DNA from: an uncultured Bacilli bacterium | GTDB taxonomy: Bacteria > Bacillota_I > Bacilli_A > RF39 > UBA660 | DNA: 60,436 bases | Direction: 5' to 3' | NCBI GenBank assembly: GCA_910576985.1 | Contig: CAJTLA010000001.1 | Coordinates: 1 to 60,436 of the forward strand | Part shown: positions 8,043 through 50,506 of the stretch, one piece after another | Layout of the letters: the number at the start of each line of letters is the position of its first letter | How positions within the stretch are numbered: position 1 is the first letter of the stretch | Made by a program: the position numbers and the translations under genes | The notes under the pieces: generated by a model | What the model was told of the DNA's origin: nothing | Databases searched by the model: none | The model's input: the letters and a program-made list of their open reading frames with translations, nothing else

Positions 8043-8064
8043 AAAAGATTAGAATTCTAATCTT
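8043..8064. terminator. Bidirectional terminator between convergent genes (overlaps the leuS stop)
   Basis: Perfect palindrome aaagattagaa/ttctaatcttt, flanked by an A-run and a T-run. Confidence 0.5.
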
Positions 8065-10802: not shown

Positions 10803-11030
10803 AAAATCCTCCTACGAAAAAAGTACCATGATATAAGGACGAGTTTTCCCGCGGTACCACCTTACTTCATAATACTTTATTATGCGCTTTCCAGATAACG
10901 GCTGGGACCGCTTAATCGAACAGGATAAGTAAGTTCGGAATGGAAATATTCAGATTTTCACCAACCATCTGCTCTCTTTTTTTATTTCTCTTTTCTTACT
11001 ACTCTTATCTTTTTGTCTTTTTTTAACAAC
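10803..11030 (-). promoter_or_regulatory. T-box riboswitch leader, leucine-specific
   Basis: On the minus strand, in order: AGAGAG (AG bulge), GGTGAAA (distal loop), specifier loop GAA-CUU-A (CUU at 10931-10933), T-box sequence AAGGTGGTACCGCGGG (10848-10861), then a GTACC...GGTAC stem followed by T6. Confidence 0.85.
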
Positions 11031-19304: not shown

Positions 19305-19386
19305 CCAACTCCAAATTTAATAATCTCAACATAATTTTACCATAAATTCGACAATTTACCTATAATTTCCAGCATTTTCGCACTTA

Positions 19387-19411
19387 CAAATTTCTGTTTA
19401 TCGATTTGTTC
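19387..19411. repeat. hsdS distal conserved-region repeat, copy 2 (exact 25 nt)
   Basis: caaatttctgtttatcgatttgttc is identical to 20855-20879, in direct orientation. Confidence 0.9.
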
Positions 19412-19682
19412 TACTATTTTAGCAAACTTATTTTGTAGTTCAATTGGTGGTAATATTATAATTAGTCTATTTAACATTTGTTGATTAATATTATTAATAT
19501 TTTCACCTCTATTATCCTTCTTTTTCTTTACTTCCGTTTGATCTAACAAAAACTATATCATTGTTTTGTAAGTAATAATTCGGATTAATTTTATCATTTA
19601 AAACAATTTTATCTAGCTGTTCCATTTTAAATATTATCTTTCCATTTTTAAAGTTTCCTATATTTCCTAAATTATCAGTTTC

Positions 19683-19737
19683 CCACTTTTTATCATTTGT
19701 AACTGGATCACCAAACATCTCGACAAACTGAGATTTT
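19683..19737. repeat. hsdS central conserved-region repeat, copy in the silent cassette
   Basis: 55 nt, matching 21348-21402 at 52/55 positions, in direct orientation. It includes an exact 27-mer, ccaaacatctcgacaaactgagatttt. Confidence 0.9.
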
Positions 19738-19745
19738 GAAATGTA

Positions 19746-20736
19746 CTAGCAAATATATTTATGATGAGATAATTTAACATTATTTTGATTAACTATAGTA
19801 TATTGTAATGTAGTATCTATTTTGGCATGACCTAATAATCTCTGTGCTTGTTCTATTGGCATTCCCTTATCAATTGCTTTTGTTGCCATAGTTCTTCTAA
19901 ACTTATGAGGATGCACCCTTTGTAGCTCTAAATCTCTTCCTAATTTTCTTAATCTTATTTCTCCCCCACTAATTTCTAGTCTGTCATAGGGTGAGAGCAA
20001 GCTAACAAATAAAGCTAGATTATCATCATTTCTCATTGATAAATATTTCTCTAAATGTAATTTAGTCCTTGCGTCAAAATAAATTTCTCTTTCCTTACTA
20101 CCTTTACCAAATACAATACATAATCTATCTTCAAAACTAATATCATTTTTATTTAATTTAACTAATTCACCTACTCTCACTCCTGTAGAAGTTAAAAAAT
20201 CTATCAATGCTAAGTCTCTTATTTCCTCACAACTATCTCTTAACTTTTCTATTGTTTCATCTGAATATGTCTCTCGCACTACTTTGGTTGTTTTAATTTT
20301 ATGTATTCTTCTAATCGGACTTTTTATAATATAATCTTCATCTTCAAGCCAAGAAAAGAAGCTAGAAAATATTCTTCTAACATTATCTATAGTTACTTTA
20401 CTACAATTATTTTTTTCCTGATATGATGTTAAATAACCCCTTAAATCATCAGTATCTACAGTTTTAATTTCTTTCTTTATTTGTTCTAACATGTTATCTA
20501 TTGTTGTCTTATAATAATTTAATGTCCTTTTCTGAGCAACCTTCTACTTTTTTTGATGAAATAAATAGTTCTGCATAATCTACATCATCCTTTTTATTCT
20601 TTTCCACTTCAATTACATCATATTTATATAAATTATATTCTAAAATTTCATTTAGTTTTTCTAATTGATAGTTATTTAAATATGAGTTCATTTCAGAATT
20701 AATTGTTCTAATTAAACTATTCTTCATATATACCAA
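19746..20736 (-). pseudogene. Tyrosine site-specific recombinase (phage-integrase/Xer-like) inside the hsd locus, split by a 1-nt frameshift
   Basis: The upstream ORF (20509-20736) ends ...KKVEGCSEKDIKLL*. Shifting one base near 20512-20527 reads CSEKTLNYYKTTIDNMLEQ..., which continues into ORF 19746-20492. That ORF has the catalytic HPHKFRRT and LLGHAKIDTTLQY motifs. Confidence 0.8.
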
Positions 20737-20786
20737 TCCCCATTTTTAGAACGGCATATATTATAACATAGAAAAAAAAGAGCGTT

Positions 20787-21926
20787 TTAATCAAAATACT
20801 CCTGCATCAATGATGACTTCATTTCTTCTAATTTTTTTAAGCTCTTTTCAAATTCAAATTTCTGTTTATCGATTTGTTCAAAGATTTCACCAAAACGAAT
20901 TTGAAGATCTAATGGTGGAAAAATAAACTCTAAATTACCTAATTGATTTTTACTAAGTATTCCCTTCAGAGACATATTTACTGGTGTATGAAGATATTTT
21001 TTAGACAAAACAAATTGCTCATACATAAAATAAACATTATTACTCTTTGGATTAATTCCATTTATTTGTTGATTAAAGGATACTTTACGATTTGTTATAC
21101 CTACATTTCCTATGGAATTTAAACTTCCTGCAATGCATGTCATTAATATGCAACCACTGTCTAAATATCGGCCTACCCTTAAGCCTTCAAAAGATAATGA
21201 TTCTTTTGCCTTTGTTAGATATGTATAATCATTTAATATATTGTCAGATTTTATCCATTCAATATCGTCTCCATAATATGAACCAACTTTTCTTGAAGGA
21301 GTATTTCCTGTTGTAATTTCACATTCATCAAATAATCTTCTTTTTTTCCACTTTTTATCATTTGTGATTGGATCTCCAAACATCTCGACAAACTGAGATT
21401 TTATAATATTATTACAACAAATTATTTGTTTTTTTCTTATATCTATATTATTATAAACTTTATCAAAAACCTTAATTATTTTATATTGGATCTCTAATGA
21501 TGGTATTTCTAAATTATATTCTTTTAACCACTCAGTGCTCATATTCAATTGTGCTATCCCTTGCGATGAATTTATACAATCAAATTCAAATTTTTTAGAA
21601 TTTAAAATATAATATAAAAATTTAGGTATTACTTTTTCCTTATTCACTCGTAAACAACATACTCGTTGATTTAAATATGCAGGTAAAAATTCTTTTGTAA
21701 CCAATGCACATCTTCCAACATTTCCTGTTAGAGAAATTAACAAGTCATTTTCTTGTAATTCATATTTTTCTAATTGACTATCAAATTCATAAAATACAGG
21801 TTTTTCATCTTCTATAAAACCAGATTGAACATTTGTTATTCTAATTACTCTATGTCCATCATTTACATATTTTGAACTTTTAAAGGCATATCCATTTAAT
21901 ACATTTGAAATTTCTTTAATTTTCAT
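20787..21926 (-). CDS. hsdS: Type I R-M specificity subunit, full length (two TRDs)
   Basis: 379 aa. TRD1 is followed by the central region KSQFVEMFGDPITNDKKW, then TRD2, then the distal region FPPLDLQIRFGEIFEQIDKQKF and a coiled-coil tail. Confidence 0.9.
   Translation of the reverse strand: MKIKEISNVLNGYAFKSSKYVNDGHRVIRITNVQSGFIEDEKPVFYEFDSQLEKYELQENDLLISLTGNVGRCALVTKEFLPAYLNQRVCCLRVNKEKVIPKFLYYILNSKKFEFDCINSSQGIAQLNMSTEWLKEYNLEIPSLEIQYKIIKVFDKVYNNIDIRKKQIICCNNIIKSQFVEMFGDPITNDKKWKKRRLFDECEITTGNTPSRKVGSYYGDDIEWIKSDNILNDYTYLTKAKESLSFEGLRVGRYLDSGCILMTCIAGSLNSIGNVGITNRKVSFNQQINGINPKSNNVYFMYEQFVLSKKYLHTPVNMSLKGILSKNQLGNLEFIFPPLDLQIRFGEIFEQIDKQKFEFEKSLKKLEEMKSSLMQEYFD
20855..20879. repeat. hsdS distal conserved-region repeat, copy 1
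   Basis: Exact 25-nt match to 19387-19411. Confidence 0.9.
21348..21402. repeat. hsdS central conserved-region repeat, copy in the full-length hsdS
   Basis: 55 nt, 52/55 identical to 19683-19737, in direct orientation. Confidence 0.9.
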
Positions 21927-22468
21927 AGATACATCTCCTTAACAAACTGAGATTTGACTAGCTGTTCCAATTTACCTATCTGATTACTTTTTATGTTAAT
22001 TAGATTGTCTATCATTGTTAATCTCTCTATTATTTTTTCTTGTTCGCTTATAGTTGGTATATACTTTATTATTATTTTACTCAATCCTTCATTATTTAGT
22101 GCTTTCTGTGTGGCTCCTGAACATAATCTATTTTTTTTCGAATTAAATGATTCTGAGTTTAAATAATAATACAAATATTTTTGCATAACATTGTTATTAG
22201 GCGTTAAAACATAAAATCCTGTAGAATATATATTATTTATATTATCATTATTAGCACACAAAGTTTTAATAGTATCTTTCATCTTTGTAAATAAAACATC
22301 GCTATCATCAATCTGAACATTTGCTCTTGAGGGCTTGTCTTTATAAGATACACTTTCAAAATTTATTATTTCGTTATTTATAACCTCTCCCGTTGCAACA
22401 TATTTCTTCAATCTCTGATATTTCTTTACGGATTTCCCACCAACTTTGCAAATATCTAATAGTTTCAT
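21923..22468 (-). CDS. hsdS: Half-size Type I specificity subunit (single TRD plus conserved helix)
   Basis: 181 aa. The ATG immediately follows the hsdM TAG. The TRD ends in ...IGKLEQLVKSQFVKEMYL*, exactly at the central conserved region. An ATGA overlap links it to the full-length hsdS. Confidence 0.75.
   Translation of the reverse strand: MKLLDICKVGGKSVKKYQRLKKYVATGEVINNEIINFESVSYKDKPSRANVQIDDSDVLFTKMKDTIKTLCANNDNINNIYSTGFYVLTPNNNVMQKYLYYYLNSESFNSKKNRLCSGATQKALNNEGLSKIIIKYIPTISEQEKIIERLTMIDNLINIKSNQIGKLEQLVKSQFVKEMYL
21931..21954. repeat. Partial third copy of the central hsdS repeat, at the 3' end of the half-size hsdS
   Basis: catctc..acaaactgagattt shares an exact 14-mer (acaaactgagattt) with the other two copies. 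It encodes SQFVKEM. Confidence 0.7.
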
Positions 22469-23917
22469 CTATAGCAACTCCTCTAGCTCTTTAAGTTGTT
22501 TTTGAAATTCTTCTTCCATATCCATAATTTGTTTTAATATTACTTTAGGATCTTCGTATTTTATTTTTTCTTGAATAATTTCTTTATATTTATTAATTGA
22601 TAAATCATAATCATTTTTGATTATTTCTTCTTTTGGAACAAAGAAAGATTTGTCTGTTCTCTGTCTATTTTCTTCAGAAGATAGATTATTATACCTTTTT
22701 ATAATATCTGGAATATCATTTTCTTGTGTTGGAGTTCTTTTAGCATCTAAACTGAAACCATCGGCTGTCATATCATAAAACCATACTTTATCTGTACCTC
22801 CAGTAGTTGTTTTAGTAAATATCATTACTGCTGTAGACACTCCTGCATATGGTTGAAATACTCCACTAGGCATAGAAATTATAGCTTCTAGTTTATTATT
22901 CTCTACTATTTCTTTTCTAATTGATTTATGTGCATTACTACTTCCAAACAATACACCATCAGGTACTATACAAGCACATCTGCCGCCTATTTTTAGACTT
23001 CTTAAAAATAATGCTAAAAATAATAATTCTGTTTTCTTAGTATTACAAATTTTTGATAAAGATGGAGATATTGTTGTTTCATCAATAGAACCTTTAAATG
23101 GAGGATTAGCTAATATTAATGAATACTTATCAGTATCTGTATTTTCTCCTGAGGCAGAATCTTTATATTCGATATTAGGATTATCGATTCCATGCATTAT
23201 CATATTCATTGCACTAATACTTAACATAGTATCATCAGTATCAAAACCATAAAACATTTCATTATTAAAATGATATTTTGTACTTTCACTATTAAATATA
23301 TCTGGGTAATTTTTTCTTAAATATTCACTTGATTCAAGTAGGAATCCACCTGTACCACATGCTGGATCACAAATTGTATCGATTGGAGTTGGTTTAACTA
23401 ATTCAACCATCATTTTAATAATGTGTCTAGGAGTTCTAAATTGACCATTTCTTCCTGCTGTTGCAAGTTTAGAAAGTAAATATTCGTAAATATCTCCTTT
23501 CGTATCTCTATCTTTCATTGGAATAGAGTCTAATTTGGTTACAACCTTTTCTAATACTAAGGCACTTGGAACCATAAATATTGATTTTTCCATATATTTT
23601 GAGAAAGATGAATCCTTTCCAGCTTTTAAATTTTTAATAAATGGAAAAATTTTAGTAGTCATTAGGTTAAACATTGCATCTGCTGATAAATTTTTAAATT
23701 TACTCCATCTACAGTTTTGGTGTTCTTCATCAAATATTCTATTAAATTTAACTCCTAATAATTGCTCTGTTTGCTCATTATTAGTTTCCACTTCGTCTAA
23801 TCCTTTTATAAACAACAAATATGTCATTTGCTTAATTACAGATAATGGATCTGTCATGCCACCATTTGCAAAATCTAGCCATATTGAATCGATTTTATTT
23901 TGAATAGCTTTTTCCAT
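22469..23917 (-). CDS. hsdM: Type I R-M N6-adenine DNA methyltransferase subunit
   Basis: Contains an HsdM N-terminal domain, motif I DPACGTGGFL and motif IV LANPPF. Confidence 0.95.
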   Translation of the reverse strand: MEKAIQNKIDSIWLDFANGGMTDPLSVIKQMTYLLFIKGLDEVETNNEQTEQLLGVKFNRIFDEEHQNCRWSKFKNLSADAMFNLMTTKIFPFIKNLKAGKDSSFSKYMEKSIFMVPSALVLEKVVTKLDSIPMKDRDTKGDIYEYLLSKLATAGRNGQFRTPRHIIKMMVELVKPTPIDTICDPACGTGGFLLESSEYLRKNYPDIFNSESTKYHFNNEMFYGFDTDDTMLSISAMNMIMHGIDNPNIEYKDSASGENTDTDKYSLILANPPFKGSIDETTISPSLSKICNTKKTELLFLALFLRSLKIGGRCACIVPDGVLFGSSNAHKSIRKEIVENNKLEAIISMPSGVFQPYAGVSTAVMIFTKTTTGGTDKVWFYDMTADGFSLDAKRTPTQENDIPDIIKRYNNLSSEENRQRTDKSFFVPKEEIIKNDYDLSINKYKEIIQEKIKYEDPKVILKQIMDMEEEFQKQLKELEELL

Positions 23918-23945
23918 GTTTAATTACCTCCTACACTTAATCTTT

Positions 23946-24377
23946 TTAATTCAAGTCATTTCTAAAGTATTTTGAATTTTCTTTAAACAACAAATAATTT
24001 ATATTGTAACCAAGTTCTTTTAAATATTTAATCATAAATATTACTGTTGTTCTAGTATTACCCTCCATAAAAGGATGCACTTGCCAAATACAAAAAGTAA
24101 AATTAGATACACTTATTATTTGATCTGATGCACTTAACTTTTTATAATCTTCTTGTCTTTCATCAGAAAAATCATAAATAAGATAGTCTTTAACCCTATT
24201 ATAATCACAATATACTACCGTATCACCATTCAATATTGCTTCATTTTTTGAGATATTAACTTCCCTAAACTTGCCAGCAAACTCATAGACATCTTTAAAT
24301 AAAAAGTAATGAACATATTTATAAAAATCTATCGTTAAATAAAACATATCCTTTTGTAATATTTGCATAATTCTCAA
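23946..24377 (-). pseudogene. Fic/DOC-family protein, N-terminally truncated, with a non-canonical active-site motif
   Basis: Contains FLFKDVYEFAGKFREVNISK and HPFMEGNTRTTV, versus the canonical HxFx(D/E)GNGRxxR. There is no ATG: the frame opens only about 20 codons upstream, after a stop. The best available start is a TTG. Confidence 0.6.
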
Positions 24378-24415
24378 TGATACAAAATCACATTCATGTC
24401 TATTATAGCTATTGT

Positions 24416-24550
24416 TTAGATCATCATATATTTCTTTAGTTTACTTTCTAATTCATCAAATGATATTTCGTTCTTAATATTTAATTTCACTAATTCTTTC
24501 AGATATTCAGAAGGTGTTAAATTATCAACTTGCTGTAGTCCAATTGCCAT
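24416..24550 (-). CDS. Possible VbhA-like Fic antitoxin mini-ORF (44 aa), fused in frame behind AbiEii debris
   Basis: MAIGLQQVDNLTPSEYLKELVKLNIKNEISFDELESKLKKY resembles the VbhA-type pattern (LEGLxPSxE...GEISxDE). The inhibitory (S/T)xxxE(G/N) motif is not intact. Confidence 0.35.
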   Translation of the reverse strand: MAIGLQQVDNLTPSEYLKELVKLNIKNEISFDELESKLKKYMMI

Positions 24551-24977
24551 TTTCCATCTACTATTATACTTTCCACGTCTTAAAACAGTTGATAATATAG
24601 TTTCAATATTATAGCTATTGATTAAAATACTTCTATCTTCAAATAATAATGGATATTTAAATTTCAATTCTTTTGATGTTACTTTATCATCAATAAATAT
24701 ATCAATTTCTAGATTTACTTTAGTGCTATTTATTCTGCCAGTAATATGATATTTATTACCATCATATTCATCTTCTTCTCTTATATCAGTAATACTTACA
24801 ATATCAAATTTAACTCCATCATTACAGCAAGTAATAATCCCCCTTTAATATAAAATTATCTTGATATTTTGAAACAGATATTCTTTCAAACATAAATCTT
24901 TGTAATGATTCATAATAATTTAAATTATATTTATCTTCAAGCTCTTTAGCTTTTAATTTAATTTTTCCTTCTACCAT
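24551..24977 (-). pseudogene. AbiEii/AbiGii-family nucleotidyltransferase toxin, inactivated
   Basis: It starts at an ATG overlapping the AbiEi stop: MVEGKIKLKAKELEDKYNLNYYESLQRFMFERISVSKYQDNFILKG. The frame then breaks at a C5/G5 run (24839-24843). The segment that should carry the catalytic DxD is missing. The frame resumes as DGVKFDIVSITDIREEDEYDGNKY...YNIETILSTVLRRGKYNSRWK. Confidence 0.75.
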
Positions 24978-25558
24978 TTCATCATTACCTCCACAATTGT
25001 ATTAACTTTTTCATATATATTAAATATTTCTGCATATTCTAATAATTTATCAAGATCTTTATCTTTACTATGAAAATAATAATCTAATACTCTATTTTGA
25101 AGTTCTAAATCAAATTCTCCTTCAGTTCTTAACATGTCACAAATACATCTTTCTGCATTATATATTTTTACTGGATTACCATTTGGGCTTAGAGTTTCGA
25201 TTATCCCGATATCATAATACTTGTCTGAAACATAATGAATATTATAATTCCCTCTAACCCTTTTATTTCTTGGTATCGTTATATCAATTTCAGATGGTGT
25301 CTTAGTAGTAAGATTTAAAATGTGTAATGCTGTATTATATGAAAATACCACTAAAGGATACTTCTTTTGTAAAATAAAATATTCATCCTTAAGAATCTTT
25401 GTATCCATATATAAACCATGACTAACTTTTTCTATAATACTTTTATCAATATAAAATTGAATTTGAGATTTATAAATATTAAGTCTTAGTAATTCTGCAG
25501 TAGTAATATAACCATGACTTGTTTCTAAAAATTCTACCAATCTTTTCTCGTTATTCAT
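24971..25558 (-). CDS. AbiEi-family type IV TA antitoxin / transcriptional regulator
   Basis: 195 aa: MNNEKRLVEFLETSHGYITTAELLRLNIYKSQIQFYIDKSIIEKVSHGLY (AbiEi wHTH) plus a C-terminal domain. An extended -10 TGtTATAAT lies on the minus strand at 25587-25595. Confidence 0.75.
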   Translation of the reverse strand: MNNEKRLVEFLETSHGYITTAELLRLNIYKSQIQFYIDKSIIEKVSHGLYMDTKILKDEYFILQKKYPLVVFSYNTALHILNLTTKTPSEIDITIPRNKRVRGNYNIHYVSDKYYDIGIIETLSPNGNPVKIYNAERCICDMLRTEGEFDLELQNRVLDYYFHSKDKDLDKLLEYAEIFNIYEKVNTIVEVMMKW

Positions 25559-25772: not shown

Positions 25773-26576
25773 TCAGTTTTCATAACCTCTTTGTATTTCA
25801 ATAAACTTGTGTACTAATTCTGGATCATATAATGTTCCTTTGCCACCCTCTTCTTTTTTCTGTGTACATAAAAGCAGTTCTTTGAATGCTTCTTCTTTTT
25901 TTTCTGCATTGTGGTAAATTCTATTTGAAGTAATGGCATCATAGCTATCCGCTATTCCAATGATTTGGGCCCCAATACTTGGAGTGATTCCCATATAGTA
26001 ACCACTTTCATCTAGTCTTTCATGATGAGATTCGATCATTTCAATAATTTCCTCATTTAAAAATTGATCAACAATTTGACGAGCAAAAATACAATGTTTT
26101 TGTATCATTTCAAATTCTTCGTCTGTTAGTTTTCCAGGTTTCCCTAGAACTTCTTCTGGAATCAAATATTTTCCAATATCATGGAATAATGCTGCTATAT
26201 AAATTCTTTTGATGTGTTCTTTTGAAAGTTTTATATGTTCTGCTAATTCACGTGCATATTTTGCAACTCTAAGTAAATGACCTAATTTTTGTTCTTCTAT
26301 CATTTCTATTTTAATATTGAGTTCTAAATAAGAAGAAAATTCATCTAAATATGCTTGTTGTTCTTTGCTTTTTTCAAAGTCAAATTGGTCTACTTCTTCT
26401 AATGTAATCATTGGAATTTCTAGCATTTCATATAAATATAACAATTCTTTATCTAGCATTTTTTTATCTTTTACAATTAAAGGACAACATAAGTGATAAA
26501 TATTTTCTTCTATATTATGACATTCTATTTTTAATTGCTCTATTTCTTTTTGATCTAATTTGTAATAACCTACCAT
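25773..26576 (-). CDS. HD-GYP-type phosphodiesterase (variant GYP motif); last gene of the operon
   Basis: Contains AALFHDIGKYLIPEEVLGKPGKLTDEEFEMIQKH and HHERLDESGYYMG (canonical HHExxDGxGYP). The N-terminal ~100 aa is an unassigned domain. Confidence 0.8.
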   Translation of the reverse strand: MVGYYKLDQKEIEQLKIECHNIEENIYHLCCPLIVKDKKMLDKELLYLYEMLEIPMITLEEVDQFDFEKSKEQQAYLDEFSSYLELNIKIEMIEEQKLGHLLRVAKYARELAEHIKLSKEHIKRIYIAALFHDIGKYLIPEEVLGKPGKLTDEEFEMIQKHCIFARQIVDQFLNEEIIEMIESHHERLDESGYYMGITPSIGAQIIGIADSYDAITSNRIYHNAEKKEEAFKELLLCTQKKEEGGKGTLYDPELVHKFIEIQRGYEN

Positions 26577-26587
26577 AACGCCTCCAT

Positions 26588-27370
26588 CTAATTTTGTTTC
26601 ATTTTTTCATAATAATGATATGCTTTTCGAAGTCCTTCATAATGATAATATTTTTGAATTTTTTTAAAGTCTTGATCCATTTCTTTTTTTGTCTTGAAAT
26701 ATTCTTGTTCATCGGAATAAACTTCATAAATTGTATTTACTTTTTTTTGATATTTTTTTGCATATTCGATTTCATTTTCAATGTTCTCTTTTGTATATTT
26801 TATATTATAGTTCATCAGTGATGCTTCATCGCATCCTTCTTTTATTATATCTTCTAATAGGTTCTTGTCAATACTATCCAACCAGACTGGGAGCGCTAGA
26901 ACAACATAAAGATTTTTCTTTTTCGCATATTGATATGCTTCTTTTACTGAAGCCGCATAAAGTGGAAAGTCAAAATCTTCTTCATTATGTAAGTAAGGTT
27001 CTACATCAAAGACGATTCCATCTATTTTTTCTTCATTTCTCTGATTATAAGAGATTACTTTGTCAATTTCTTTTTTCATTTGGGTGGCTTTTCGATCTAG
27101 TCCCCAAGATGGGTCTCCACATAATTGATATACTTTTATTTTTTTTTCTTTCATTTTTTTTAAAAATGCAGAATCATTTTTACTTAAGTAGTCTGTGGTA
27201 AAGTCTTGATAAATTTCTTTGATATCATACTTTTTAATGATATCGAATAGTTCTTTATCTTCTAATGCATCCATACTCCAAGAATATAATATATTATTTT
27301 CTTGTCTTGAGGTTATAATTAGAAATAAACATACAATGATTAAAATTACACTCCATATTTTCTTTTTCAA
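26588..27370 (-). CDS. Secreted or membrane-anchored small TIM-barrel-like glycoside-hydrolase-like protein
   Basis: N-terminal signal/anchor. IDGIVFDVEPY resembles the GH18-type DGxDxDxE acid-catalyst strip with the middle Asp replaced. No secure family assignment. Confidence 0.45.
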   Translation of the reverse strand: MKKKIWSVILIIVCLFLIITSRQENNILYSWSMDALEDKELFDIIKKYDIKEIYQDFTTDYLSKNDSAFLKKMKEKKIKVYQLCGDPSWGLDRKATQMKKEIDKVISYNQRNEEKIDGIVFDVEPYLHNEEDFDFPLYAASVKEAYQYAKKKNLYVVLALPVWLDSIDKNLLEDIIKEGCDEASLMNYNIKYTKENIENEIEYAKKYQKKVNTIYEVYSDEQEYFKTKKEMDQDFKKIQKYYHYEGLRKAYHYYEKMKQN

Positions 27371-27374
27371 ATTA

Positions 27375-28763
27375 TCACTCCATTTTTGTTCTTGATATTT
27401 TTCCCCAATTAAGTTTATTTTTTCGTGTTGTAAAAAATGAGGTTAATCGGTACCAGTTTACTAGTTGCCTAAATCCAAAGTTTTCAATGATAGAGTAAAA
27501 TATCACTCTAATAAAGTCTTTTGTTGAAAAACGGTTGGTTGTATATACACGATTAAAAAATGTTGTTATTGTAAATATGGTACAAAATAATATATAAATG
27601 GCAAAATAAATCATCATGAATTTAAAGTTAATCAGTTCTAAAAAGTAAGAAATAAATATGAATATCAGTCCTATTGTTTCTGTTAATGGCGCAAATAATT
27701 CATAGATCCAATAGTATAAGAAAGAAACCGTTCCTAATAGTCCATATTTGGGATTTAAAAACATATTTTTATGGGACAATAAACTTTGGAATAATCCTCT
27801 ATGCCATCTTTTTCTTTGACGTTTGAAGTCTTTTAATTTACTTGGTGCTTGTGTATAACATATGGCTTCTGGTACATAACTAATTCGATATGGAATTTTA
27901 TTAGAAATAGCATAATCATGAAGTCGAATGACTAGTTCCATATCTTCTCCAATCGTGTTGGTTTTGTAGCCTCCTGCTTCTATTACAATTTGTTTTTTGA
28001 AAAGTCCGAAGGCTCCTGATACAATCATATTTCCATTGAATACATCGAATATGGTTCTACTCGCTAAAAAAGTACGATCATATTCTAAAGTCTGAATCAT
28101 TTCTAAATATTTTTTTGGCAAATGATAGTCGACGATTTTTCCATCTTTGAATGTAAGTCCATTTGATAGTTTGATCACACCTCCTGTTGCAATAATTGTA
28201 GAGTCTTCCATAATTGGTTTTACTAACTCTGTTAAAGAATTTTCTTGTAATACAGAATCTGCATCAATGGTTAGAAAGTATGGAGAATTTGCAGTATTAA
28301 TTCCAGCATTTAAGGCATCTGCTTTCCCTCCATTTTCTTTTGCAACAACAGTTAATTTTACTTTTAAATTTCCTTCATAATATTCCTTTACTTTTTTTGT
28401 GTGAATTTTTCTTCTTACTACTTTTGGGATTTTCTTTAAATCATAATGTTTTATTAATGTTTTTAAGGTTTGATCTGTCGATCCATCGTCAACAACAACA
28501 ATCTCATATAATTTATAGTCTAAATTTAAAAGAGAGTCTATCGTTGATATAATGGTCACTTCTTCATTATAGGCAGGAACCACTATTGATATGGGCAAAT
28601 AGAAGTCCCTTTCTATTTCGTTTTTATATTTTTTCTTTCGTTCTGTTATATAAAAACGCATTGCTCCTATAATGGCGGAACAAAATAAGAAACCTCCATA
28701 AAGAATAATATAATACAAGAAAAAATCATTTACAAATAATGTTAAGTTTTTTAAAAAGCTCAT
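27375..28763 (-). CDS. Processive family-2 glycosyltransferase (synthase type, BcsA/PgaC/IcaA-like)
   Basis: N-terminal TM segment. Motifs: VVPAYNEE, VVVDDGSTD, GGKADALNAG, TIDADS, IGEDMEL and QRKRWHRG (Q(Q/R)xRW). There are C-terminal TM helices. Confidence 0.85.
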   Translation of the reverse strand: MSFLKNLTLFVNDFFLYYIILYGGFLFCSAIIGAMRFYITERKKKYKNEIERDFYLPISIVVPAYNEEVTIISTIDSLLNLDYKLYEIVVVDDGSTDQTLKTLIKHYDLKKIPKVVRRKIHTKKVKEYYEGNLKVKLTVVAKENGGKADALNAGINTANSPYFLTIDADSVLQENSLTELVKPIMEDSTIIATGGVIKLSNGLTFKDGKIVDYHLPKKYLEMIQTLEYDRTFLASRTIFDVFNGNMIVSGAFGLFKKQIVIEAGGYKTNTIGEDMELVIRLHDYAISNKIPYRISYVPEAICYTQAPSKLKDFKRQRKRWHRGLFQSLLSHKNMFLNPKYGLLGTVSFLYYWIYELFAPLTETIGLIFIFISYFLELINFKFMMIYFAIYILFCTIFTITTFFNRVYTTNRFSTKDFIRVIFYSIIENFGFRQLVNWYRLTSFFTTRKNKLNWGKISRTKME

Positions 28764-28766
28764 TTT

Positions 28767-29801
28767 CTACACTTCCTGACTTATCAATGCTTGAACCATT
28801 TCTATGGCAAATGGGTCTGTTAATCCAGTAATTTTTTTTAAATCGGTCATTTTTTTTAAACTTTTTGCTGCATTATAACGAACGTAATAGTTATAATTGC
28901 TCAATGATTTTGTTAATACTTTAATGGTTTTTGGACTTGGATAATTTGCTAATGTTTGAATGATCACCACATCATATTCAAAATCTTTATAGTAATTATT
29001 TTCTAAACGCTCTAATAATATTATACTAGCTTTTTTATCTAGTACCTTAGAAAAGTAGCGAATTATTTCGATTTCTACTTCTTTTTCTATGTTTTTAGGA
29101 TTTTTTAAACGTTCGATTAGTTCTTTTTTCACATCATATTTACATTGTCTAAAAAATGTTAAAAATCCAATTTTAAATGGTTCTTTAAATTCATCAAATC
29201 GCTCATATAGTTTTTTACAGAGTTCTTCTTTGTCTCCTATAAAATTAGACAGTCCATCTGCTACTAATTTATATCCATAGTTTATGTTTTGTCTAGACAT
29301 TATTTGGTAAGCTTCTACTACTTTATCACTGTTTCCTGAGTGGTAAAATGCTTGAAGAGCATTTTCTTGGCAATAAAGTGATTTTGAAGTAACGCAATGA
29401 AATAAAAAGTGATCGATTTCTTTTTGTTCAATTTGAATAAACTGTAACATATAAGCATAATATGCTTTCTCTAAGTCATCTTTTTTTTGATAAATTGATG
29501 CAAGAGATAAAAGAATTGTTTGATATTCTTTTTTGGAAACGATATCTTGAATGGTTTCATTTTCGATTTCAAGGTTTTCTTCTAGCATGTTACAAAATAC
29601 ATATAAATATGATAACGATTTCAATTTTTGAATTATTTTTTTGTTATCCTTTTTTAAAATAAGTTTTATTAATTTTTCTTTTTTTCTTTGATCAATTTTT
29701 TGTTCTCTTTTTCTTTTATATAAGCTAACCATATCATAAATTAAAAGTAGAACAAAGAATAGTACAAAGAAACTTAAAATAAATGTGACATGTTCTATCA
29801 T
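28767..29801 (-). CDS. Membrane-anchored HEAT-repeat protein
   Basis: One N-terminal TM segment followed by alpha-helical repeats. The terminal repeat LTKSLSNYNYYVRYNAAKSLKKM fits the HEAT/PBS-lyase repeat signature. Confidence 0.55.
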   Translation of the reverse strand: MIEHVTFILSFFVLFFVLLLIYDMVSLYKRKREQKIDQRKKEKLIKLILKKDNKKIIQKLKSLSYLYVFCNMLEENLEIENETIQDIVSKKEYQTILLSLASIYQKKDDLEKAYYAYMLQFIQIEQKEIDHFLFHCVTSKSLYCQENALQAFYHSGNSDKVVEAYQIMSRQNINYGYKLVADGLSNFIGDKEELCKKLYERFDEFKEPFKIGFLTFFRQCKYDVKKELIERLKNPKNIEKEVEIEIIRYFSKVLDKKASIILLERLENNYYKDFEYDVVIIQTLANYPSPKTIKVLTKSLSNYNYYVRYNAAKSLKKMTDLKKITGLTDPFAIEMVQALISQEV

Positions 29802-29804
29802 GTT

Positions 29805-31901
29805 CTACTCCTCCTTTAATGCATTTTTTATGATATCATATGATTTTTTTAGTCGTTCATGGTAAGTGATTCTTTCTTTCCATCCTTTTAAAGAAAGTGT
29901 TCCAAATGGAATTGTATTTTCTTTGGTTCCAATACCAATATGCATTTGATTAATGTGGTAGTCTTCTACTCCATAATGTTCATAATAATCATCATGAATC
30001 ATCATTAGTGATGGATCGGAAAAGTTTAATATTCCCCAAGGAATTCTAATTTCAATGATATTTCCATTGGCATAAAAGTCACTTAATGAGTTAAATTTAC
30101 TATGATTTGGGTCGCTTATTCCATAGATTAAGTTTCCTGTTTTTACTACAGTCGCTTTATTTTCAATTTGGTAATCTCCATTTTGACGGTTTAAGTTTTG
30201 AAAGCTTGTAATGAGTTCAATATCTTCGAAGTTTGAACTGTCTTTTTTTGGTATATTCCCTTTTTCGAATGGTTCAATCCAATATAGTTGCTTTCCATAC
30301 ATGGCTCTTAATGGATTATATCTATCTTGCACTACGATTTTAGAATTTTTAGAGCCATTGATTTTTATAATAAAATCTGCTGCTCGATCAAATTTTAAAT
30401 TATCAAATTTTGAAGTTTTACTTCCTGTTTTTGGTGTAATATCAATTGGTAAATAAATGGTTTCTTCTTCAAACTCAAGATTTTCTTTTTCTATCAATAA
30501 ATATAAGTAAGTTGTATCATATTTACTTGATAGTTGGAATCCATTTTTATTTAATATTTGATCTTCTTTTTTCCACTCATCTTTTTTTCCATCTAAGATC
30601 ACAGGTGTTTCTTTTTTTCCATTTTCAAATGTCAAAATTCCAAAGCTATTGGTCGATGTTTGAATGTCATGCCAGTATTGGCTTCTGGTAACATCAATAC
30701 TATACATAGTATTCCAAACGTTTTTATCCCATTCATCTTGCCACTCATAAAGAATAAAGTTATTAATTCCTACTTCTTGTATTGTTTGAATTGCTTTTAC
30801 GATCATTTCTCCTTGTTCTTCTTCAGTATAAGAGGAATGCCCATAGTCTTCATTTTGGAAGTTGATGGTTTCTCCTCGAGCGGTTGAATATCCAAATTCA
30901 GAAATTACAATTGGCATTTTGTAATGGTTATAAAGACTTTTTAAGTATTCTTTATAAGAGTTTTGATAATGTTCACCGTTTAAACTATAATAATCTGGAT
31001 ATCCTGTATAGACTGCAAATGAGGCAAATAATCCTGATTTTACTTTATTGGTTGTTTCTAGCCTACTGATATCTACTGTTGTAAATTTGTTAAAAAAATC
31101 ACTAATTGCTTCATCATAGGTAAATGGATCTGTGGTTGGAGCGTTTCCAAATGATAGTAATCTTTGAGTTCCATATTTGTTACTTTCGTAGGCAAATATA
31201 GTATCACCAATTTCTGCTAGTACACGTTCAAATGGTGTCGCTTCTTTTGTCGTTTTTATGTATTTTCCATGATATTCATGATCATTTTTGTGGTTTCTAT
31301 TTGTGTATTCTACGGTTACATCATTCCATTCTGTTCCAATAATATATCCAATGGTCCATTCTGACACGTCAGCATCAAAACTTCCTGATGCATAAATCGC
31401 ATTATAGTTGATTATTTTTTTTCCATGTATGACATCTATCATTACTTTGGAATCATTTATCAAACTATTTTTTAAACTTTCATGGAAATAGTCTACACTA
31501 GAATTTTTTTCATAATCTCCTGCATCAATTCCTTGGATGAGGTATAATGGTTTTTTTTGCGTTTTATTATATTCTTTGAGTGCTTTATAAAATTCTGGTG
31601 ATTCTATTGTAAATACTCGAATGGTGTTGATATTCATATCACTAATTTGAGAAAACCATTTTAAATATGTTTGTTTGGTAATTGAAAATTCTTTGTCATC
31701 ATGTCCTGGAATGGCGGAACCAATATTAATGGCTTTTATGGTAAATGGTTGATTTTGTAATTTTAGCTCTTTTTGTTCTGTTTTAATAAATGTGGTTACA
31801 TTTTTTTTTGAAATGATACTTGTAGAGGTGTAGAAGGTAAGATAGTAGTATGCTAGTATCAATATGATAATTATAAAACAAGATATTAAATACTTCTTCA
31901 T
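29805..31901 (-). CDS. Membrane-anchored extracytoplasmic protein with a clan GH-A-like (beta/alpha)8 domain and a C-terminal beta-rich domain
   Basis: 698 aa with an N-terminal TM segment. NINTIRVF and PIVISEFGYS are typical strand-4/strand-7 signatures of clan GH-A enzymes (GH5/GH72-like). No precise family was recognised. Confidence 0.5.
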   Translation of the reverse strand: MKKYLISCFIIIILILAYYYLTFYTSTSIISKKNVTTFIKTEQKELKLQNQPFTIKAINIGSAIPGHDDKEFSITKQTYLKWFSQISDMNINTIRVFTIESPEFYKALKEYNKTQKKPLYLIQGIDAGDYEKNSSVDYFHESLKNSLINDSKVMIDVIHGKKIINYNAIYASGSFDADVSEWTIGYIIGTEWNDVTVEYTNRNHKNDHEYHGKYIKTTKEATPFERVLAEIGDTIFAYESNKYGTQRLLSFGNAPTTDPFTYDEAISDFFNKFTTVDISRLETTNKVKSGLFASFAVYTGYPDYYSLNGEHYQNSYKEYLKSLYNHYKMPIVISEFGYSTARGETINFQNEDYGHSSYTEEEQGEMIVKAIQTIQEVGINNFILYEWQDEWDKNVWNTMYSIDVTRSQYWHDIQTSTNSFGILTFENGKKETPVILDGKKDEWKKEDQILNKNGFQLSSKYDTTYLYLLIEKENLEFEEETIYLPIDITPKTGSKTSKFDNLKFDRAADFIIKINGSKNSKIVVQDRYNPLRAMYGKQLYWIEPFEKGNIPKKDSSNFEDIELITSFQNLNRQNGDYQIENKATVVKTGNLIYGISDPNHSKFNSLSDFYANGNIIEIRIPWGILNFSDPSLMMIHDDYYEHYGVEDYHINQMHIGIGTKENTIPFGTLSLKGWKERITYHERLKKSYDIIKNALKEE

Positions 31902-31903
31902 TT

Positions 31904-33316
31904 CTAATCCCCCTCATACATTTTATTGATTGATTTGTGCGAATATTGTTTTAATGTTTCGATGTTTTCATCCATCCATTTTCCACGTTTATTTAAATAT
32001 GTTTTTACTTGTTTTAATGCTTCCGCATGGCTTTGATAGTTTCTTTCGTATGGTTCGAGCATATTTTCTGTTTCTGTAAAACTTGATTCCCATACTTCAA
32101 AGTTTCGATCAATAGAGTTTCCTAAATATTTGATGGTTTTATCAATATAGTTTTGTATGTATTGATCGCTTAGATAATTTGTTCTTAGGTAACGATAACG
32201 ATCAATGATTTTGTTTACAAATCGTTCGTCTTTTAAAAGCATGTTATACCAAGCTTTGTCTTGAAATAGGAAACCTGTATGACTATAAATTTCTTCTACG
32301 TAATTATTCATGGCATTATTAAAGTCCCAAACTGGGCCCATGTGTATTTTTCCTCTGATGTCTTTAAATAAGTAAGTAGAATGGGTTCCTGCATCACTAT
32401 TTTTAAAGAATTCATTGAGAATCATATAATCGACAAAGCTGTCAACGTCAATATATTTTTCATATTCTTTATAGTCATAGGAATATAATGCTTTTTCAAA
32501 TTTTGAAAAGTCATTGTTGATATAATCTAATATTTCTTCCGTCAAGTCTATTTCTGATGGATAGATAATGTTAATTGCGTTTTGATTAATAATTTTTCCG
32601 CTATATTTGCTTAAATTATTTAACATGATGTTACTGTCATCATGTCTATCTAAACGGACTATATAGCTACTCATTCCATTTGACCAGTTTGGTTTATATC
32701 GAGTGACTTCTGTTAATGTTCTAGAAATACTTTCTACTAGTAAGTATAGTCCTTGGTATTCTTCATTTAGAAATACTTCACAATAACGTACTTCTGGCAC
32801 ATTATTCATAATTTTTCCAGAAATGTTATATGATAAGTAATTTCTAATCAATGATTTATCAAGGTATGGTCCATTTAAAATCCATTTGTTTTCGTTTTGC
32901 ATTCCTAATAGTTGTACATTTTTTCCTTGTTGATTTTTATCGATAAATTTTACTAAATATTGATGTTTGGGGAAGACACGAGATGAGTTTCCACGATATC
33001 GAATCTGAATATTACTTGATAAGTTTTTTTTATCAGTTAAACGGTTACTTGTTTTTCCGTTATAATAAAGGGAAAATTGTGCTTCAATTAAGTCACTTTC
33101 TCCGTTAATTCCGGGAATGGTTTTGTTATTTGTATTGATTTCTACAATTGGTAAATGGGTGCAAAATTCGTCATTTTTGTTACAAGTATTTTTTATTTTT
33201 TCATCAATATGTTGATCAATTCTTTTTTCATGGGATTCACTGATTCTTGCGTTTGCAAACAGGCATAATATAAAAACAATGGCTAATGATAAAAAACTAA
33301 TGAGTTTGAATTTCAT
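31904..33316 (-). CDS. CotH-family atypical protein kinase, exported
   Basis: N-terminal signal/anchor MKFKLISFLSLAIVFILCLFANA. The CotH core reads KHQYLVKF...NKWILNGPYLDKSLIRNYLSYNISGKIM...VFLNEEYQGLYLLVESI. Confidence 0.8.
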   Translation of the reverse strand: MKFKLISFLSLAIVFILCLFANARISESHEKRIDQHIDEKIKNTCNKNDEFCTHLPIVEINTNNKTIPGINGESDLIEAQFSLYYNGKTSNRLTDKKNLSSNIQIRYRGNSSRVFPKHQYLVKFIDKNQQGKNVQLLGMQNENKWILNGPYLDKSLIRNYLSYNISGKIMNNVPEVRYCEVFLNEEYQGLYLLVESISRTLTEVTRYKPNWSNGMSSYIVRLDRHDDSNIMLNNLSKYSGKIINQNAINIIYPSEIDLTEEILDYINNDFSKFEKALYSYDYKEYEKYIDVDSFVDYMILNEFFKNSDAGTHSTYLFKDIRGKIHMGPVWDFNNAMNNYVEEIYSHTGFLFQDKAWYNMLLKDERFVNKIIDRYRYLRTNYLSDQYIQNYIDKTIKYLGNSIDRNFEVWESSFTETENMLEPYERNYQSHAEALKQVKTYLNKRGKWMDENIETLKQYSHKSINKMYEGD

Positions 33317-33321
33317 TGTTT

Positions 33322-33999
33322 TTACCCATTAATTTCATCATTTTGACAAACAATATTTACATAGTCAATGTTTTTAATTTTATATAATGAATCACTAATT
33401 GATAGTTCATTTGTGTTTGCTTTGTTATATGATTTTCTTGATAATTCATAAATAAATTCTACTGTTTCTGGACTTGTATTTTTTACTCTCAAGTTGGCTT
33501 TTCCATGGAAATAAGTGAATATGGTTGATTCAATTTCGCCTTCATTTTTTCTACTTCCACGCACAACTAATAGCAAACGATCTGTATTTTTGATTCTTCC
33601 GAATAGTAATAGAAAGATAAAAATGACAATAGCTCCTACAATTGCAATTGTGAAGCAAGAGATTCCACAGCATAATCCCATTGAAATTGCCCAAAAAATA
33701 TAGATGGTATCTCTTGGATCTTTTATGGCAGTACGGAAGCGAACAATAGAAAGTGCTCCAATTGTTCCTAATGATAATGCGATGTTATTTTGAATTACGG
33801 TCATGACAATTGCAGTTACAACGGTTAACATGACAAGTGAAATATTAAATTTTGTGGAATAAATCGTTCCTGCATGGGTGTATAGGTATGATAAAAATAC
33901 AAGTAAACCTAAAATTAAGGCCATTACTACATTTAGTATGATTTGTTCAGTACTAAGTGTTCCTGTTGTTTCAAAAATATTTGTTATTAATTCATTCAT
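33322..33999 (-). CDS. DUF4956-domain membrane protein (usual partner of bacterial VTC-domain proteins)
   Basis: Contains LGTIGALSIVRFRTAIKDPRDTIYIFWAISMGLCCG and multiple TM segments. The start was set at 33999, after a GAGGAG RBS. Confidence 0.8.
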   Translation of the reverse strand: MNELITNIFETTGTLSTEQIILNVVMALILGLLVFLSYLYTHAGTIYSTKFNISLVMLTVVTAIVMTVIQNNIALSLGTIGALSIVRFRTAIKDPRDTIYIFWAISMGLCCGISCFTIAIVGAIVIFIFLLLFGRIKNTDRLLLVVRGSRKNEGEIESTIFTYFHGKANLRVKNTSPETVEFIYELSRKSYNKANTNELSISDSLYKIKNIDYVNIVCQNDEING

Positions 34000-34015
34000 T
34001 TTATTACTCCTCACT

Positions 34016-34720
34016 TTAATAAATATATTTAATGGTATTCATTCTACCTAAGCAATATTTGCTGATTGGTGTTTGAATTCGATCGATTGTACGAATTAAA
34101 TCTTTTACATAAGATAGTAGAAATCCATTATATTTTACTTCTAATACTACATGATTTTGATCAAAAACGGGATTTAACAATAAGTTTTTGTCAAATAAAT
34201 CAAATGATGTTTCTGTTGCTCTAATATCACTATCAAATGTAATTCTAGTTGAGTTTTCATTTACAATATAGGCTTTTCTACGATATTGATTGATGGTTTT
34301 TGGTACATAGTGATATTTACTCATAATGGTATATACTTCTAGTGCGAAGGGTTCTTCTTTTTCTAGTAGTACTTGATAGTCTTTTTTTATCAATCGCTCT
34401 GCTTCTTCTTTTGATACTTTTAATGATCTTTTCTGTTGATAGTTTCCTTGTTTTTGTTTCATTTCTAAGTAGGCAAAGTCATCTTCTGGATCATAAATAC
34501 GTAAACGTATTTTTCTTCTCGTTTCTAATCCATCTATTTTATTATAAAAGTCATCATCATATAGGGTATCAAAATATAAAGATCGAATCAGGTATCCATC
34601 CTTTTTGTTATGACTGTCTGGATGAAGTACTTTTCCAAAATAATGATCACTAGATAAATAGTTTCGATATGTGATCAAATATTTTTTTTCTTCCCTCAGG
34701 ACTTTTCGCAAATGCTTCAC
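34016..34720 (-). CDS. VTC-domain (polyphosphate-polymerase-like, triphosphate-tunnel) protein
   Basis: Contains REEKKYLITY...IRSLYFDTLYDDDFYNKIDGLETRRKIRLRIY...VVLEVKYNG. The ORF-track GTG start abuts the RBS, so the TTG at 34709-34711 is an alternative start. Confidence 0.8.
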   Translation of the reverse strand: MKHLRKVLREEKKYLITYRNYLSSDHYFGKVLHPDSHNKKDGYLIRSLYFDTLYDDDFYNKIDGLETRRKIRLRIYDPEDDFAYLEMKQKQGNYQQKRSLKVSKEEAERLIKKDYQVLLEKEEPFALEVYTIMSKYHYVPKTINQYRRKAYIVNENSTRITFDSDIRATETSFDLFDKNLLLNPVFDQNHVVLEVKYNGFLLSYVKDLIRTIDRIQTPISKYCLGRMNTIKYIY

Positions 34721-34765
34721 CTTCTTTCATTTTATATAGAAGGATATCATCAATGTTTCTCACAC

Positions 34766-34795
34766 AAAAATAGTATTGTTTCAAATACTATTGGG
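34766..34795 (-). promoter_or_regulatory. Terminator-like attenuator hairpin inside the operon leader
   Basis: The minus strand reads aatagtatt-tgaaaca-aatactatt (a perfect 9-bp stem) followed by TTTTGTGTG. It lies about 50 nt upstream of the VTC start. Confidence 0.5.
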
Positions 34796-34869
34796 TGCTT
34801 TTTATCACTTTTACACTCAAATTTTAAAGCATAATATATTTTGATTTCCTTCCACTAATACTAGCTTAT

Positions 34870-34897
34870 ATAATAGCACAAATTCTCATTTTGTCAA
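34870..34897 (-). promoter_or_regulatory. Promoter of the VTC...HD-GYP operon
   Basis: The minus strand reads TTGACA (34892-34897), a 16-nt spacer, then the extended -10 TGcTATTAT (hexamer at 34870-34875). Confidence 0.6.
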
Positions 34898-50491: not shown

Positions 50492-50506
50492 GGCTTTCAC
50501 CTCCAT

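Follow-up and report, generated by a model that had tools for sequence, protein, structure and literature searches.

An operon from an uncultured Bacilli bacterium joins a VTC/DUF4956/CotH module to a PgaC-like synthase and an HD-GYP phosphodiesterase

A 60,436-nt stretch of DNA from an uncultured Bacilli bacterium (GTDB lineage Bacilli_A; RF39; UBA660; contig CAJTLA010000001.1), here called the window, carries eight genes on the minus strand that encode, in the direction of transcription, a VTC-domain protein, a DUF4956 membrane protein, a CotH-family kinase, a 698-aa protein resembling clan GH-A glycosidases, a HEAT-repeat membrane protein, a processive GT2 synthase, a 260-aa TIM-barrel protein and an HD-GYP phosphodiesterase. 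We are confident that these genes constitute an operon for a synthase-dependent exopolysaccharide linked to cyclic diguanylate (c-di-GMP), in which the VTC, DUF4956 and CotH genes (the trio) are an obligate module. More tentatively, the trio may contribute polyphosphate export and a step of glycan phosphorylation; taken as a whole, we find this explanation somewhat more persuasive than not. The locus as such is not new, and the preliminary description of the window had supposed more novelty than there is: the gene order is that of the NELoc-2 locus of Clostridium perfringens (PMC2879425), and the link of the trio to Pel exopolysaccharide loci has been published (PMC7112168, PMC12345266). What is new is the version of the locus that is independent of Pel and is built around a GT2 synthase.

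The arrangement recurs in many other genomes. The 698-aa protein matched at least 552 stretches in a collection holding one genome per species, and 80 of these loci were retrieved for comparison. Across them the order VTC–DUF4956–CotH–GH–HEAT–GT2 hardly varies: of the 69 loci with enough upstream DNA 68 have the trio, and of the 70 with enough downstream DNA 69 have the HEAT and GT2 genes, so that the co-occurrence of trio and synthase, which had been put forward as a neighbourhood check, is found in other species. A six-gene arrangement that recurs in ~70 other species is more than chance. The hosts include Clostridia (Lachnospiraceae, Oscillospiraceae), Erysipelotrichales and Coriobacteriia, and cultured examples are Roseburia intestinalis, Blautia schinkii, Faecalicatena faecalis, Zongyangia hominis, Diplocloster hominis and Gordonibacter faecis; a plasmid of Planococcus maritimus bears the same gene set. 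Three loci of this Firmicutes-type operon (L002, L033 and L076) belong to metagenome-assembled genomes that bear a Muribaculaceae or Bacteroides label, for which mis-binning or horizontal transfer is possible.

The two halves of the locus can also be found apart. Replicons of Deinococcus radiophilus and Paenibacillus cellulosilyticus listed in a plasmid collection carry GH–HEAT–GT2 without the trio, and on Pseudobutyrivibrio xylanivorans pNP95 (L092 10221-13360) CotH–VTC–DUF4956 is set among the GT2, GT4, acyltransferase, pyruvyltransferase and GH99-like genes of a heteropolysaccharide cluster, with a phosphodiester glycosidase gene nearby. The trio therefore joins at least three unrelated glycan pathways: Pel, the GT2 synthase and heteropolysaccharide clusters. 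Around the six-gene order other genes come and go. The gene for the 260-aa protein is facultative, being present in 17 of the 80 loci at varying positions, and always present in a Clostridium-type clade; the HD-GYP gene is found only in that clade, where it has been kept in at least four lineages. Nine of the 80 loci have an additional gene, for a CE4 polysaccharide deacetylase, between VTC and DUF4956 (e.g. L003 6303-7772).

The arrangement of the eight open reading frames (ORFs; Table 1) is that of a single transcription unit. With the starts as first called, the gaps between them, read from VTC to HD-GYP, are 1, 5, 2, 3, 3, 4 and 11 nt. The DUF4956 gene almost certainly begins at ATG 33999, which has a GAGGAG ribosome-binding site 8 nt before it and agrees with the 225 aa at which its relatives are called; this start widens the VTC–DUF4956 gap to 16 nt, as the preliminary description had proposed when it listed the eight closely spaced ORFs at these same positions. 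VTC probably begins at TTG 34711 rather than at GTG 34720, because the latter falls within a conserved AAGGTG ribosome-binding site. No terminator-like site is present on the minus strand within the operon, again as described earlier. The thioredoxin-like gene upstream ends with a 13-bp hairpin and U-tract, and the operon promoter (TTGACA-16-TGcTATTAT) comes after this hairpin and is kept in an 84%-identical sister species (contigs L087, L088). This promoter stands as first described, but it is not the single good one: a perfect match to the consensus lies inside the gene for the 260-aa protein, ~270 nt ahead of HD-GYP, so HD-GYP may have a transcription start of its own besides the operon promoter. 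The internal match is identical in L087, but its conservation is uninformative because the surrounding L087 region is 94%-identical coding DNA. The AU-rich hairpin and U7 that follow the HD-GYP stop codon are the likely operon terminator. The hairpin within the 5' leader may be an attenuator. We rejected a novel conserved leader RNA: the only relative that shares this hairpin, like the rest of the leader, is the 84%-identical sister species, and in a 65%-identical clade the hairpin has gone, which leaves no covariation power.

Table 1. Genes and transcription signals of the operon, in window coordinates (pLDDT, predicted local distance difference test)
Feature	Position	Strand	Evidence
Sigma-70-type promoter, TTGACA-16-TGcTATTAT (TG-extended)	34870..34897	-	11/12 match with TG
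5' leader, ~150 nt	34721..34869	-	fold z = -3.0
Terminator-like hairpin and U-tract within the 5' leader	34760–34793	-	hairpin z = -2.5
VTC-domain protein, 234 aa, triphosphate-tunnel polyphosphate-polymerase type, cytoplasmic	34016..34720	-	Pfam VTC 1e-43
DUF4956 membrane protein, MgtC-like	33322..33999	-	Pfam DUF4956 5e-12, weak MgtC match
CotH-family kinase, 470 aa, exported or membrane-anchored	31904..33316	-	Pfam CotH 1e-62, 212 bits
698-aa clan GH-A (β/α)8 glycosidase/transglycosylase-like protein, N-terminally anchored, extracytoplasmic	29805..31901	-	model pLDDT 88
HEAT-repeat membrane protein	28767..29801	-	Pfam HEAT_2 3e-8
Processive GT2 synthase, PgaC/IcaA-like	27375..28763	-	Pfam Glycos_transf_2 5e-29
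260-aa anchored small TIM-barrel protein, putative glycoside hydrolase	26588..27370	-	model pLDDT 93
Possible internal promoter TTGACA-16-TATAAT inside the gene for the 260-aa protein	26844..26871	-	12/12 consensus match
Stand-alone HD-GYP phosphodiesterase, operon end	25773..26576	-	Pfam HD_5 7e-25, 88 bits
AU-rich hairpin and U7 after the HD-GYP stop codon	25712..25743	-	10-bp stem, weak fold (z = -1.1)

What polymer might such an operon produce? The synthase aligns to BcsA, has transmembrane segments at both its N and C termini, and is 26% identical to Escherichia coli PgaC (E 5e-28); its DDG, DAD, GED and QRxRW motifs (QRKRW in the window) are conserved in 70 orthologs. The architecture and motifs are those of the GT2 enzymes of the poly-N-acetylglucosamine systems PgaABCD and IcaADBC, but the window has no PgaD/IcaD, PgaB/IcaB or PgaA. 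A conserved ORF of ~177 aa with no Pfam match directly follows the GT2 gene in 21 loci and may encode a counterpart of PgaD/IcaD. The HEAT protein has one N-terminal transmembrane segment followed by KRKREQK, so its repeats are predicted to be cytoplasmic, and we presume it to be a partner of the synthase; against the PDB its family profile recovers only generic HEAT and alphaRep structures.

The 698-aa protein has no Pfam match. Its structural model consists of a transmembrane anchor, a (β/α)8 barrel and a C-terminal β-sandwich domain, and the top Foldseek hits of the barrel (GH157, GH2, GH5 and GH72) place it in clan GH-A, in agreement with the earlier call. Two glutamates, placed by the strand positions of the model, fit the expected pattern: E191, after β4 (strand 183–188), is 96% conserved and E335, on β7 (strand 331–336), is 100% conserved in 80 orthologs. 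A role like that of PgaB was considered for this protein and rejected, as it has no similarity to PgaB. The β-sandwich domain (29805-30614), which gave no family matches, holds a second invariant cluster (N626, F627, P630, H636, D638, Y639 and Y640, with the motif MxIHDDYY) that may serve in binding or as a second active site. The 260-aa protein also lacks a Pfam match and has one N-terminal hydrophobic segment. It had been described as a GH18-like secreted protein; its model is a small TIM barrel, and the likeness to GH18 is weak. Its best Foldseek match is a GH18 chitinase (E 1.6e-6, TM-score ~0.5), with Ega3 and many barrels that are not glycoside hydrolases scoring similarly, and although D122 and E124 are invariant, only D122-x-E124 of the GH18 DxxDxDxE motif is present, so that the modelled barrel can be called GH18-like only weakly.

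The trio comprises one protein with a eukaryotic relative, one membrane protein and one kinase homolog. The VTC match to Pfam PF09359 reaches 149.7 bits against a gathering threshold of 23. A single-sequence search of the PDB with VTC gave no match, and the family profile (HMMER) reaches yeast Vtc4 (3G3Q). Nine residues of Vtc4 hold triphosphate and Mn2+ in the cryo-electron microscopy structure, namely K200, R264, R266, K281, Y359, R361, E426, S457 and K458, the last of which distinguishes active Vtc4 from inactive Vtc2 and Vtc3 (bioRxiv 10.1101/2023.01.27.525886). Direct HMMER alignment equates K13, R72, R74, K88, Y146 and R148 of the window VTC with the first six, and the motifs assign E194, S220 and K221 to E426, S457 and K458. 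All nine are 100% conserved in 70 orthologs. The window VTC and eukaryotic Vtc4 thus have in common a catalytic tunnel with every triphosphate- and metal-coordinating residue, and a membrane protein, which in the window is encoded next door. Unlike the eukaryotic VTC complex, the window VTC has no SPX domain and no VTC-type transmembrane channel domain of its own (no transmembrane segment by topology prediction, no SPX match in Pfam), and the neighbouring membrane protein belongs to the DUF4956/MgtC-like family, which is unrelated to eukaryotic VTC.

The DUF4956 protein has ~4 predicted transmembrane segments, a cytoplasmic C-terminal domain and a near-invariant basic loop, VRFRTAIKDPRD. Its family comprises 5,992 clusters at 50% identity, and the top 150 of these are all stand-alone proteins of ~220–230 aa. 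On two Bacteroidota plasmids (L093 8001-8669 and L094 7959-8636), a DUF4956 gene without VTC or CotH adjoins genes for a TolC-family protein and an HlyD adaptor. These neighbours hint faintly that DUF4956 could be the inner-membrane part of an export system.

The CotH protein aligns to Bacillus cereus CotH (PDB 5JD9), and D308 and D331 match the aspartates of its NFD and WD motifs. Both are conserved in orthologs (97% and 100%, respectively) at the canonical spacing of 23 residues. We take them to be equivalent to D228 and D251 of the Bacillus subtilis protein. Residues 308-314 (window 32375-32395) read D-A-x-x-x-S-T in every CotH of this locus type, compared with D-x-x-x-H-N in spore-coat CotH. 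The window CotH is of the same fold family as the Bacillus spore-coat kinase (PDB 5JD9/5JDA), with both catalytic aspartates and the same spacing, but differs from it in its N-terminal hydrophobic segment, which predicts export or anchoring, and in its vegetative promoter and the Ser-Thr that stands for the loop Asn. CotH proteins of the window type also occur in taxa generally known not to sporulate, unlike the spore-coat protein. The six domain assignments of the preliminary description (VTC, DUF4956, CotH, HEAT, GT2 and HD-GYP) all find Pfam matches, and hidden Markov model and structure analysis upholds VTC, CotH and the processive GT2 down to their catalytic residues.

Two lines of evidence from the orthologous loci connect the operon with c-di-GMP. 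Rfam finds a c-di-GMP-I riboswitch before VTC in six of 12 loci, and a clade-specific covariance model, built from the Rfam hits and run on the 80 loci, finds one in 33 of them, always on the operon strand; in all but one of these 33 loci, 23–99 nt separate its 3' end from the VTC start, and it is found only at the VTC end of the operon. A protein with a degenerate GGDEF motif (e.g. TENGF or SDRGF) and intact EALxR and DDxGxG motifs is encoded in 59 of the 80 loci, and in at least 48 of those 59 its gene directly follows GT2. Many loci have a canonical GGDEF cyclase upstream as well. Since the window HD-GYP occupies the position of the EAL-type enzyme in other species, it looks like a non-orthologous displacement of the operon-terminal phosphodiesterase. 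The nearest solved relative of this HD-GYP is PmGH (4MCW, 3.6e-22), whose H, HD, H, HH and D metal ligands it keeps, with Gln in place of the extra Glu ligand; the motif region reads HHERLDESGYY, so that GYP becomes GYY, and no transmembrane segment is predicted. A 686-aa protein with a C-terminal GGDEF domain is encoded elsewhere in the window (48446-50506), and the organism therefore has c-di-GMP signalling although the operon leader has no riboswitch. Control by c-di-GMP, as proposed from the window alone, is accordingly supported by riboswitches in the orthologous loci and by the EAL-type protein in most of them, but not by a riboswitch in the window. PgaCD, a synthase of comparable type, is activated by c-di-GMP.

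The layout of the operon is equivalent to that of NELoc-2, a chromosomal locus of C. perfringens tied to necrotic enteritis (Lepp et al. 2010, PMC2879425), whose association with necrotic-enteritis strains was confirmed by Lacey et al. 2018 (PMC5964661); the equivalence is by the published gene table rather than by sequence. The genes given for NELoc-2 are those for VTC and for a membrane protein annotated as "tubulin/FtsZ", then CotH, a hypothetical protein of 685 aa, a protein with HEAT repeats and a GT2 annotated as "chitin synthase" (PMC2879425). Gene order and sizes correspond (VTC 230–232 aa, membrane protein 222–226 aa), and the "tubulin/FtsZ" membrane protein is the equivalent of DUF4956 under a mistaken annotation. 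NELoc-2 differs in that its VTC/DUF4956 pair is duplicated around a resolvase and that it also has a sigma factor and a 348-aa protein; its gene table lists no HD-GYP or 260-aa gene. Neither PMC2879425 nor PMC5964661 assigns NELoc-2 a function or reads it as an exopolysaccharide operon linked to c-di-GMP, the discussion of c-di-GMP in PMC2879425 concerning NELoc-1. There was no recognisable C. perfringens ortholog among the top 120 homologs, in annotated collections that hold no C. perfringens chromosomes.

The trio itself is reminiscent of Gram-positive Pel loci, where cotH and the genes for a polyphosphate polymerase, DUF4956 and DUF4832 are contiguous with pelDEADAFG (Whitfield 2020, PMC7112168), so that here too the trio stands beside a synthase-dependent exopolysaccharide system. 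Pel loci of Gram-positive bacteria also have a membrane-anchored TIM-barrel hydrolase, and bifidobacterial ones carry a diguanylate cyclase/phosphodiesterase gene. In Streptococcus intermedius, deletion of DUF4956 or of CotH changes the level of Pel as well as aggregation (PMC12345266); the trio in Pel loci modulates aggregation rather than building the polymer. The window operon is nevertheless not a Pel locus: PelF (a GT4), PelG, PelD, PelE and PelA are absent, and a GT2 synthase with a HEAT partner is present in their stead. Its gene order is VTC–DUF4956–CotH, compared with CotH–VTC–DUF4956 in Pel loci, and its CotH has no FN3 tail, unlike the Pel-locus protein. Membership in the Pel group was rejected, as none of the eight proteins matches a Pel family and no Pel genes are among the conserved neighbours of the 80 loci. 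The trio is thus not confined to Pel loci, contrary to the statement in the S. intermedius study that it is not found outside them (PMC12345266). A full-text search, over an incomplete coverage of the literature, found no publication that describes a GT2-type trio locus as a c-di-GMP exopolysaccharide system.

The interpretation that we favor is as follows. The eight genes would form one transcription unit for a c-di-GMP-linked, synthase-dependent exopolysaccharide, in which a GH–HEAT–GT2 core has been joined to a mobile three-gene module. The PgaC/IcaA-like GT2, working with its membrane-anchored, cytoplasmic HEAT-repeat partner, would polymerize and export a β-linked polymer that is probably rich in N-acetylhexosamine. 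A β-linkage is proposed because GT2 enzymes are inverting and because a clan GH-A partner fits such a linkage; N-acetylhexosamine is proposed because of the PgaC-like synthase, the CE4 gene in nine loci and the GH18-like DxE barrel. Outside the membrane, the anchored clan GH-A enzyme and the small TIM-barrel hydrolase would trim or remodel the polymer, and the terminal HD-GYP would degrade the cyclic dinucleotide and so provide negative feedback.

How might a kinase that lies outside the cell be supplied with phosphate? VTC would make polyphosphate from nucleoside triphosphate at the cytoplasmic face of the membrane, DUF4956, which is MgtC-like, would most likely receive it and pass it across, and the exported CotH would phosphorylate the nascent polymer or another matrix component; polyphosphate exported in this way would make up for the lack of extracellular ATP. 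This three-step model is the most economical because the trio joins three unrelated glycan pathways, because CotH is placed where ATP is scarce and because the VTC site is complete. It could be extended to view the trio as a portable machine for extracellular phosphorylation, whose CotH uses polyphosphate threaded through DUF4956, and not ATP, to act on nascent surface glycans; DUF4956 would then be functionally analogous to the eukaryotic VTC channel while unrelated to it in sequence. We regard this extension as rather unlikely. At the genomic level the interpretation given in the preliminary description is supported; its suggestion of a surface polymer that is phosphorylated, polyphosphate-linked or kinase-modified is still a hypothesis.

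Several observations weigh against parts of this scheme. The window leader gave no Rfam match to any known riboswitch, that for c-di-GMP-I (RF01051) included, at the gathering threshold or at E ≤ 10, and none with the clade-specific covariance model; the operon encodes no PilZ or GGDEF domain by Pfam, and the window holds no recognisable c-di-GMP receptor. Given the perfect promoter match inside the gene for the 260-aa protein, HD-GYP could be expressed independently of the other genes. Although the best NCBIfam match of the GT2 is PgaC/IcaA (TIGR03937), it scores 143 bits against an equivalog cut-off of 422 bits, and none of the eight proteins has an NCBIfam equivalog. There is no CE4 gene in the window by Pfam. 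No VTC–DUF4956 fusion occurs among the top 150 of the 5,992 DUF4956 family clusters, and no homology connects DUF4956 with the eukaryotic VTC channel. In the CotH kinase loop an invariant S313-T314 takes the place of the Asn that is expected five residues beyond the catalytic Asp. To our knowledge, every CotH kinase characterised to date uses ATP and has proteins as its substrates. Deletion of VTC in S. intermedius had no reported phenotype (PMC12345266).

Some of these points would suit a trio that is regulatory, an alternative to which we give limited credence. CotH would then phosphorylate proteins of the synthase complex or of the surface, VTC and DUF4956 would adjust phosphate or ATP homeostasis in the manner of MgtC, and the amount of an unmodified polymer would be tuned. 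The weak MgtC match of DUF4956 is consistent with this, known CotH enzymes are protein kinases, and Whitfield et al. put forward protein phosphorylation as a means of regulating Pel (PMC7112168); the S. intermedius mutants, moreover, shift the amount of Pel in opposite directions without abolishing it (PMC12345266). Three points speak against it: CotH is predicted to lie outside the membrane, whereas the HEAT domain and the catalytic domain of the GT2 lie inside; the invariance of all the Vtc4 polymerase residues, the K458 equivalent included, argues for real polymer synthesis; and an association with three unrelated glycan pathways fits an activity on glycans better than a pathway-specific regulator. 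The intact VTC catalytic set would equally serve a reading in which polyphosphate is itself the product of importance, co-secreted into the matrix as an anion and cross-linking a polymer made cationic by partial de-N-acetylation, with CotH being only an anchoring or processing factor. The trio accompanies both Pel, a cationic polymer, and a PgaC-like synthase, and the CE4 deacetylase gene lies inside nine loci, but it is absent from the window and from most loci, the conserved catalytic aspartates of CotH argue for an enzymatic activity, and export of polyphosphate is hypothetical. We think this arrangement decidedly unlikely.

Two further readings can be given little weight. CotH is a spore-coat kinase in Bacillus and the host is low-GC and Clostridium-like, so the operon might build a component of the spore surface, such as a coat or exosporium glycan, in keeping with the classical role of CotH. 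The promoter is of the vegetative sigma-70 type, however, orthologs lie under c-di-GMP riboswitches, and the window CotH has a segment for export or anchoring; Gordonibacter and Planococcus, which also have the cluster, are not known to sporulate. The trio is also present in streptococci, non-sporulating according to the papers cited on their loci. On promoter type, export signal and taxonomy we rejected a spore-coat function, which is very improbable. That the genes are adjacent by chance, or belong to two or more unrelated units that are not co-transcribed, is scarcely credible: the perfect promoter-like match inside the gene for the 260-aa protein and the variability of that gene and of HD-GYP across species would permit it, but the gaps are of 1–16 nt with no internal terminator-like site, the six-gene order is kept in ~70 species, and the riboswitch is found only at the VTC end.

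The genes flanking the operon are unrelated to it. On one side are thioredoxin-like genes and Ldh, and on the other an island with AbiEi-like, Fic and type I restriction-modification genes. The window has a GC content of ~28% and its DNA matches the metagenome-assembled genome GCA_951801705.1. In the island (15948-25558), the AbiEi-like and Fic/DOC genes are accompanied by a type I restriction-modification system made up of hsdR, an integrase gene, a pair of hsdS genes and hsdM. Contig L087 of the sister species lacks the island: after HD-GYP it has one small ORF on the opposite strand and then genes for pyruvate kinase, a GH31 protein and leucyl-tRNA synthetase. The island looks like an insertion of ~10 kb, and the integrase and two hsdS genes suggest a phase-variable specificity shufflon. 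Elsewhere in the window, a T-box leader (10832-11015, 102.6 bits) lies upstream of a gene for a 799-aa class I tRNA synthetase (8057-10456), and a ribosomal protein L21 leader is found at 1487-1557.

The operon provides a working model for the virulence-associated NELoc-2, whose connection with necrotic enteritis dates from 2010. Matched in more than 500 genome stretches, the operon may represent a common c-di-GMP-controlled exopolysaccharide operon of gut Bacillota, and it makes the roles of bacterial VTC-domain proteins and of CotH proteins unconnected with spores addressable in tractable organisms. If exported polyphosphate does fuel an extracellular kinase, this would be a new way to energise chemistry outside the cell.

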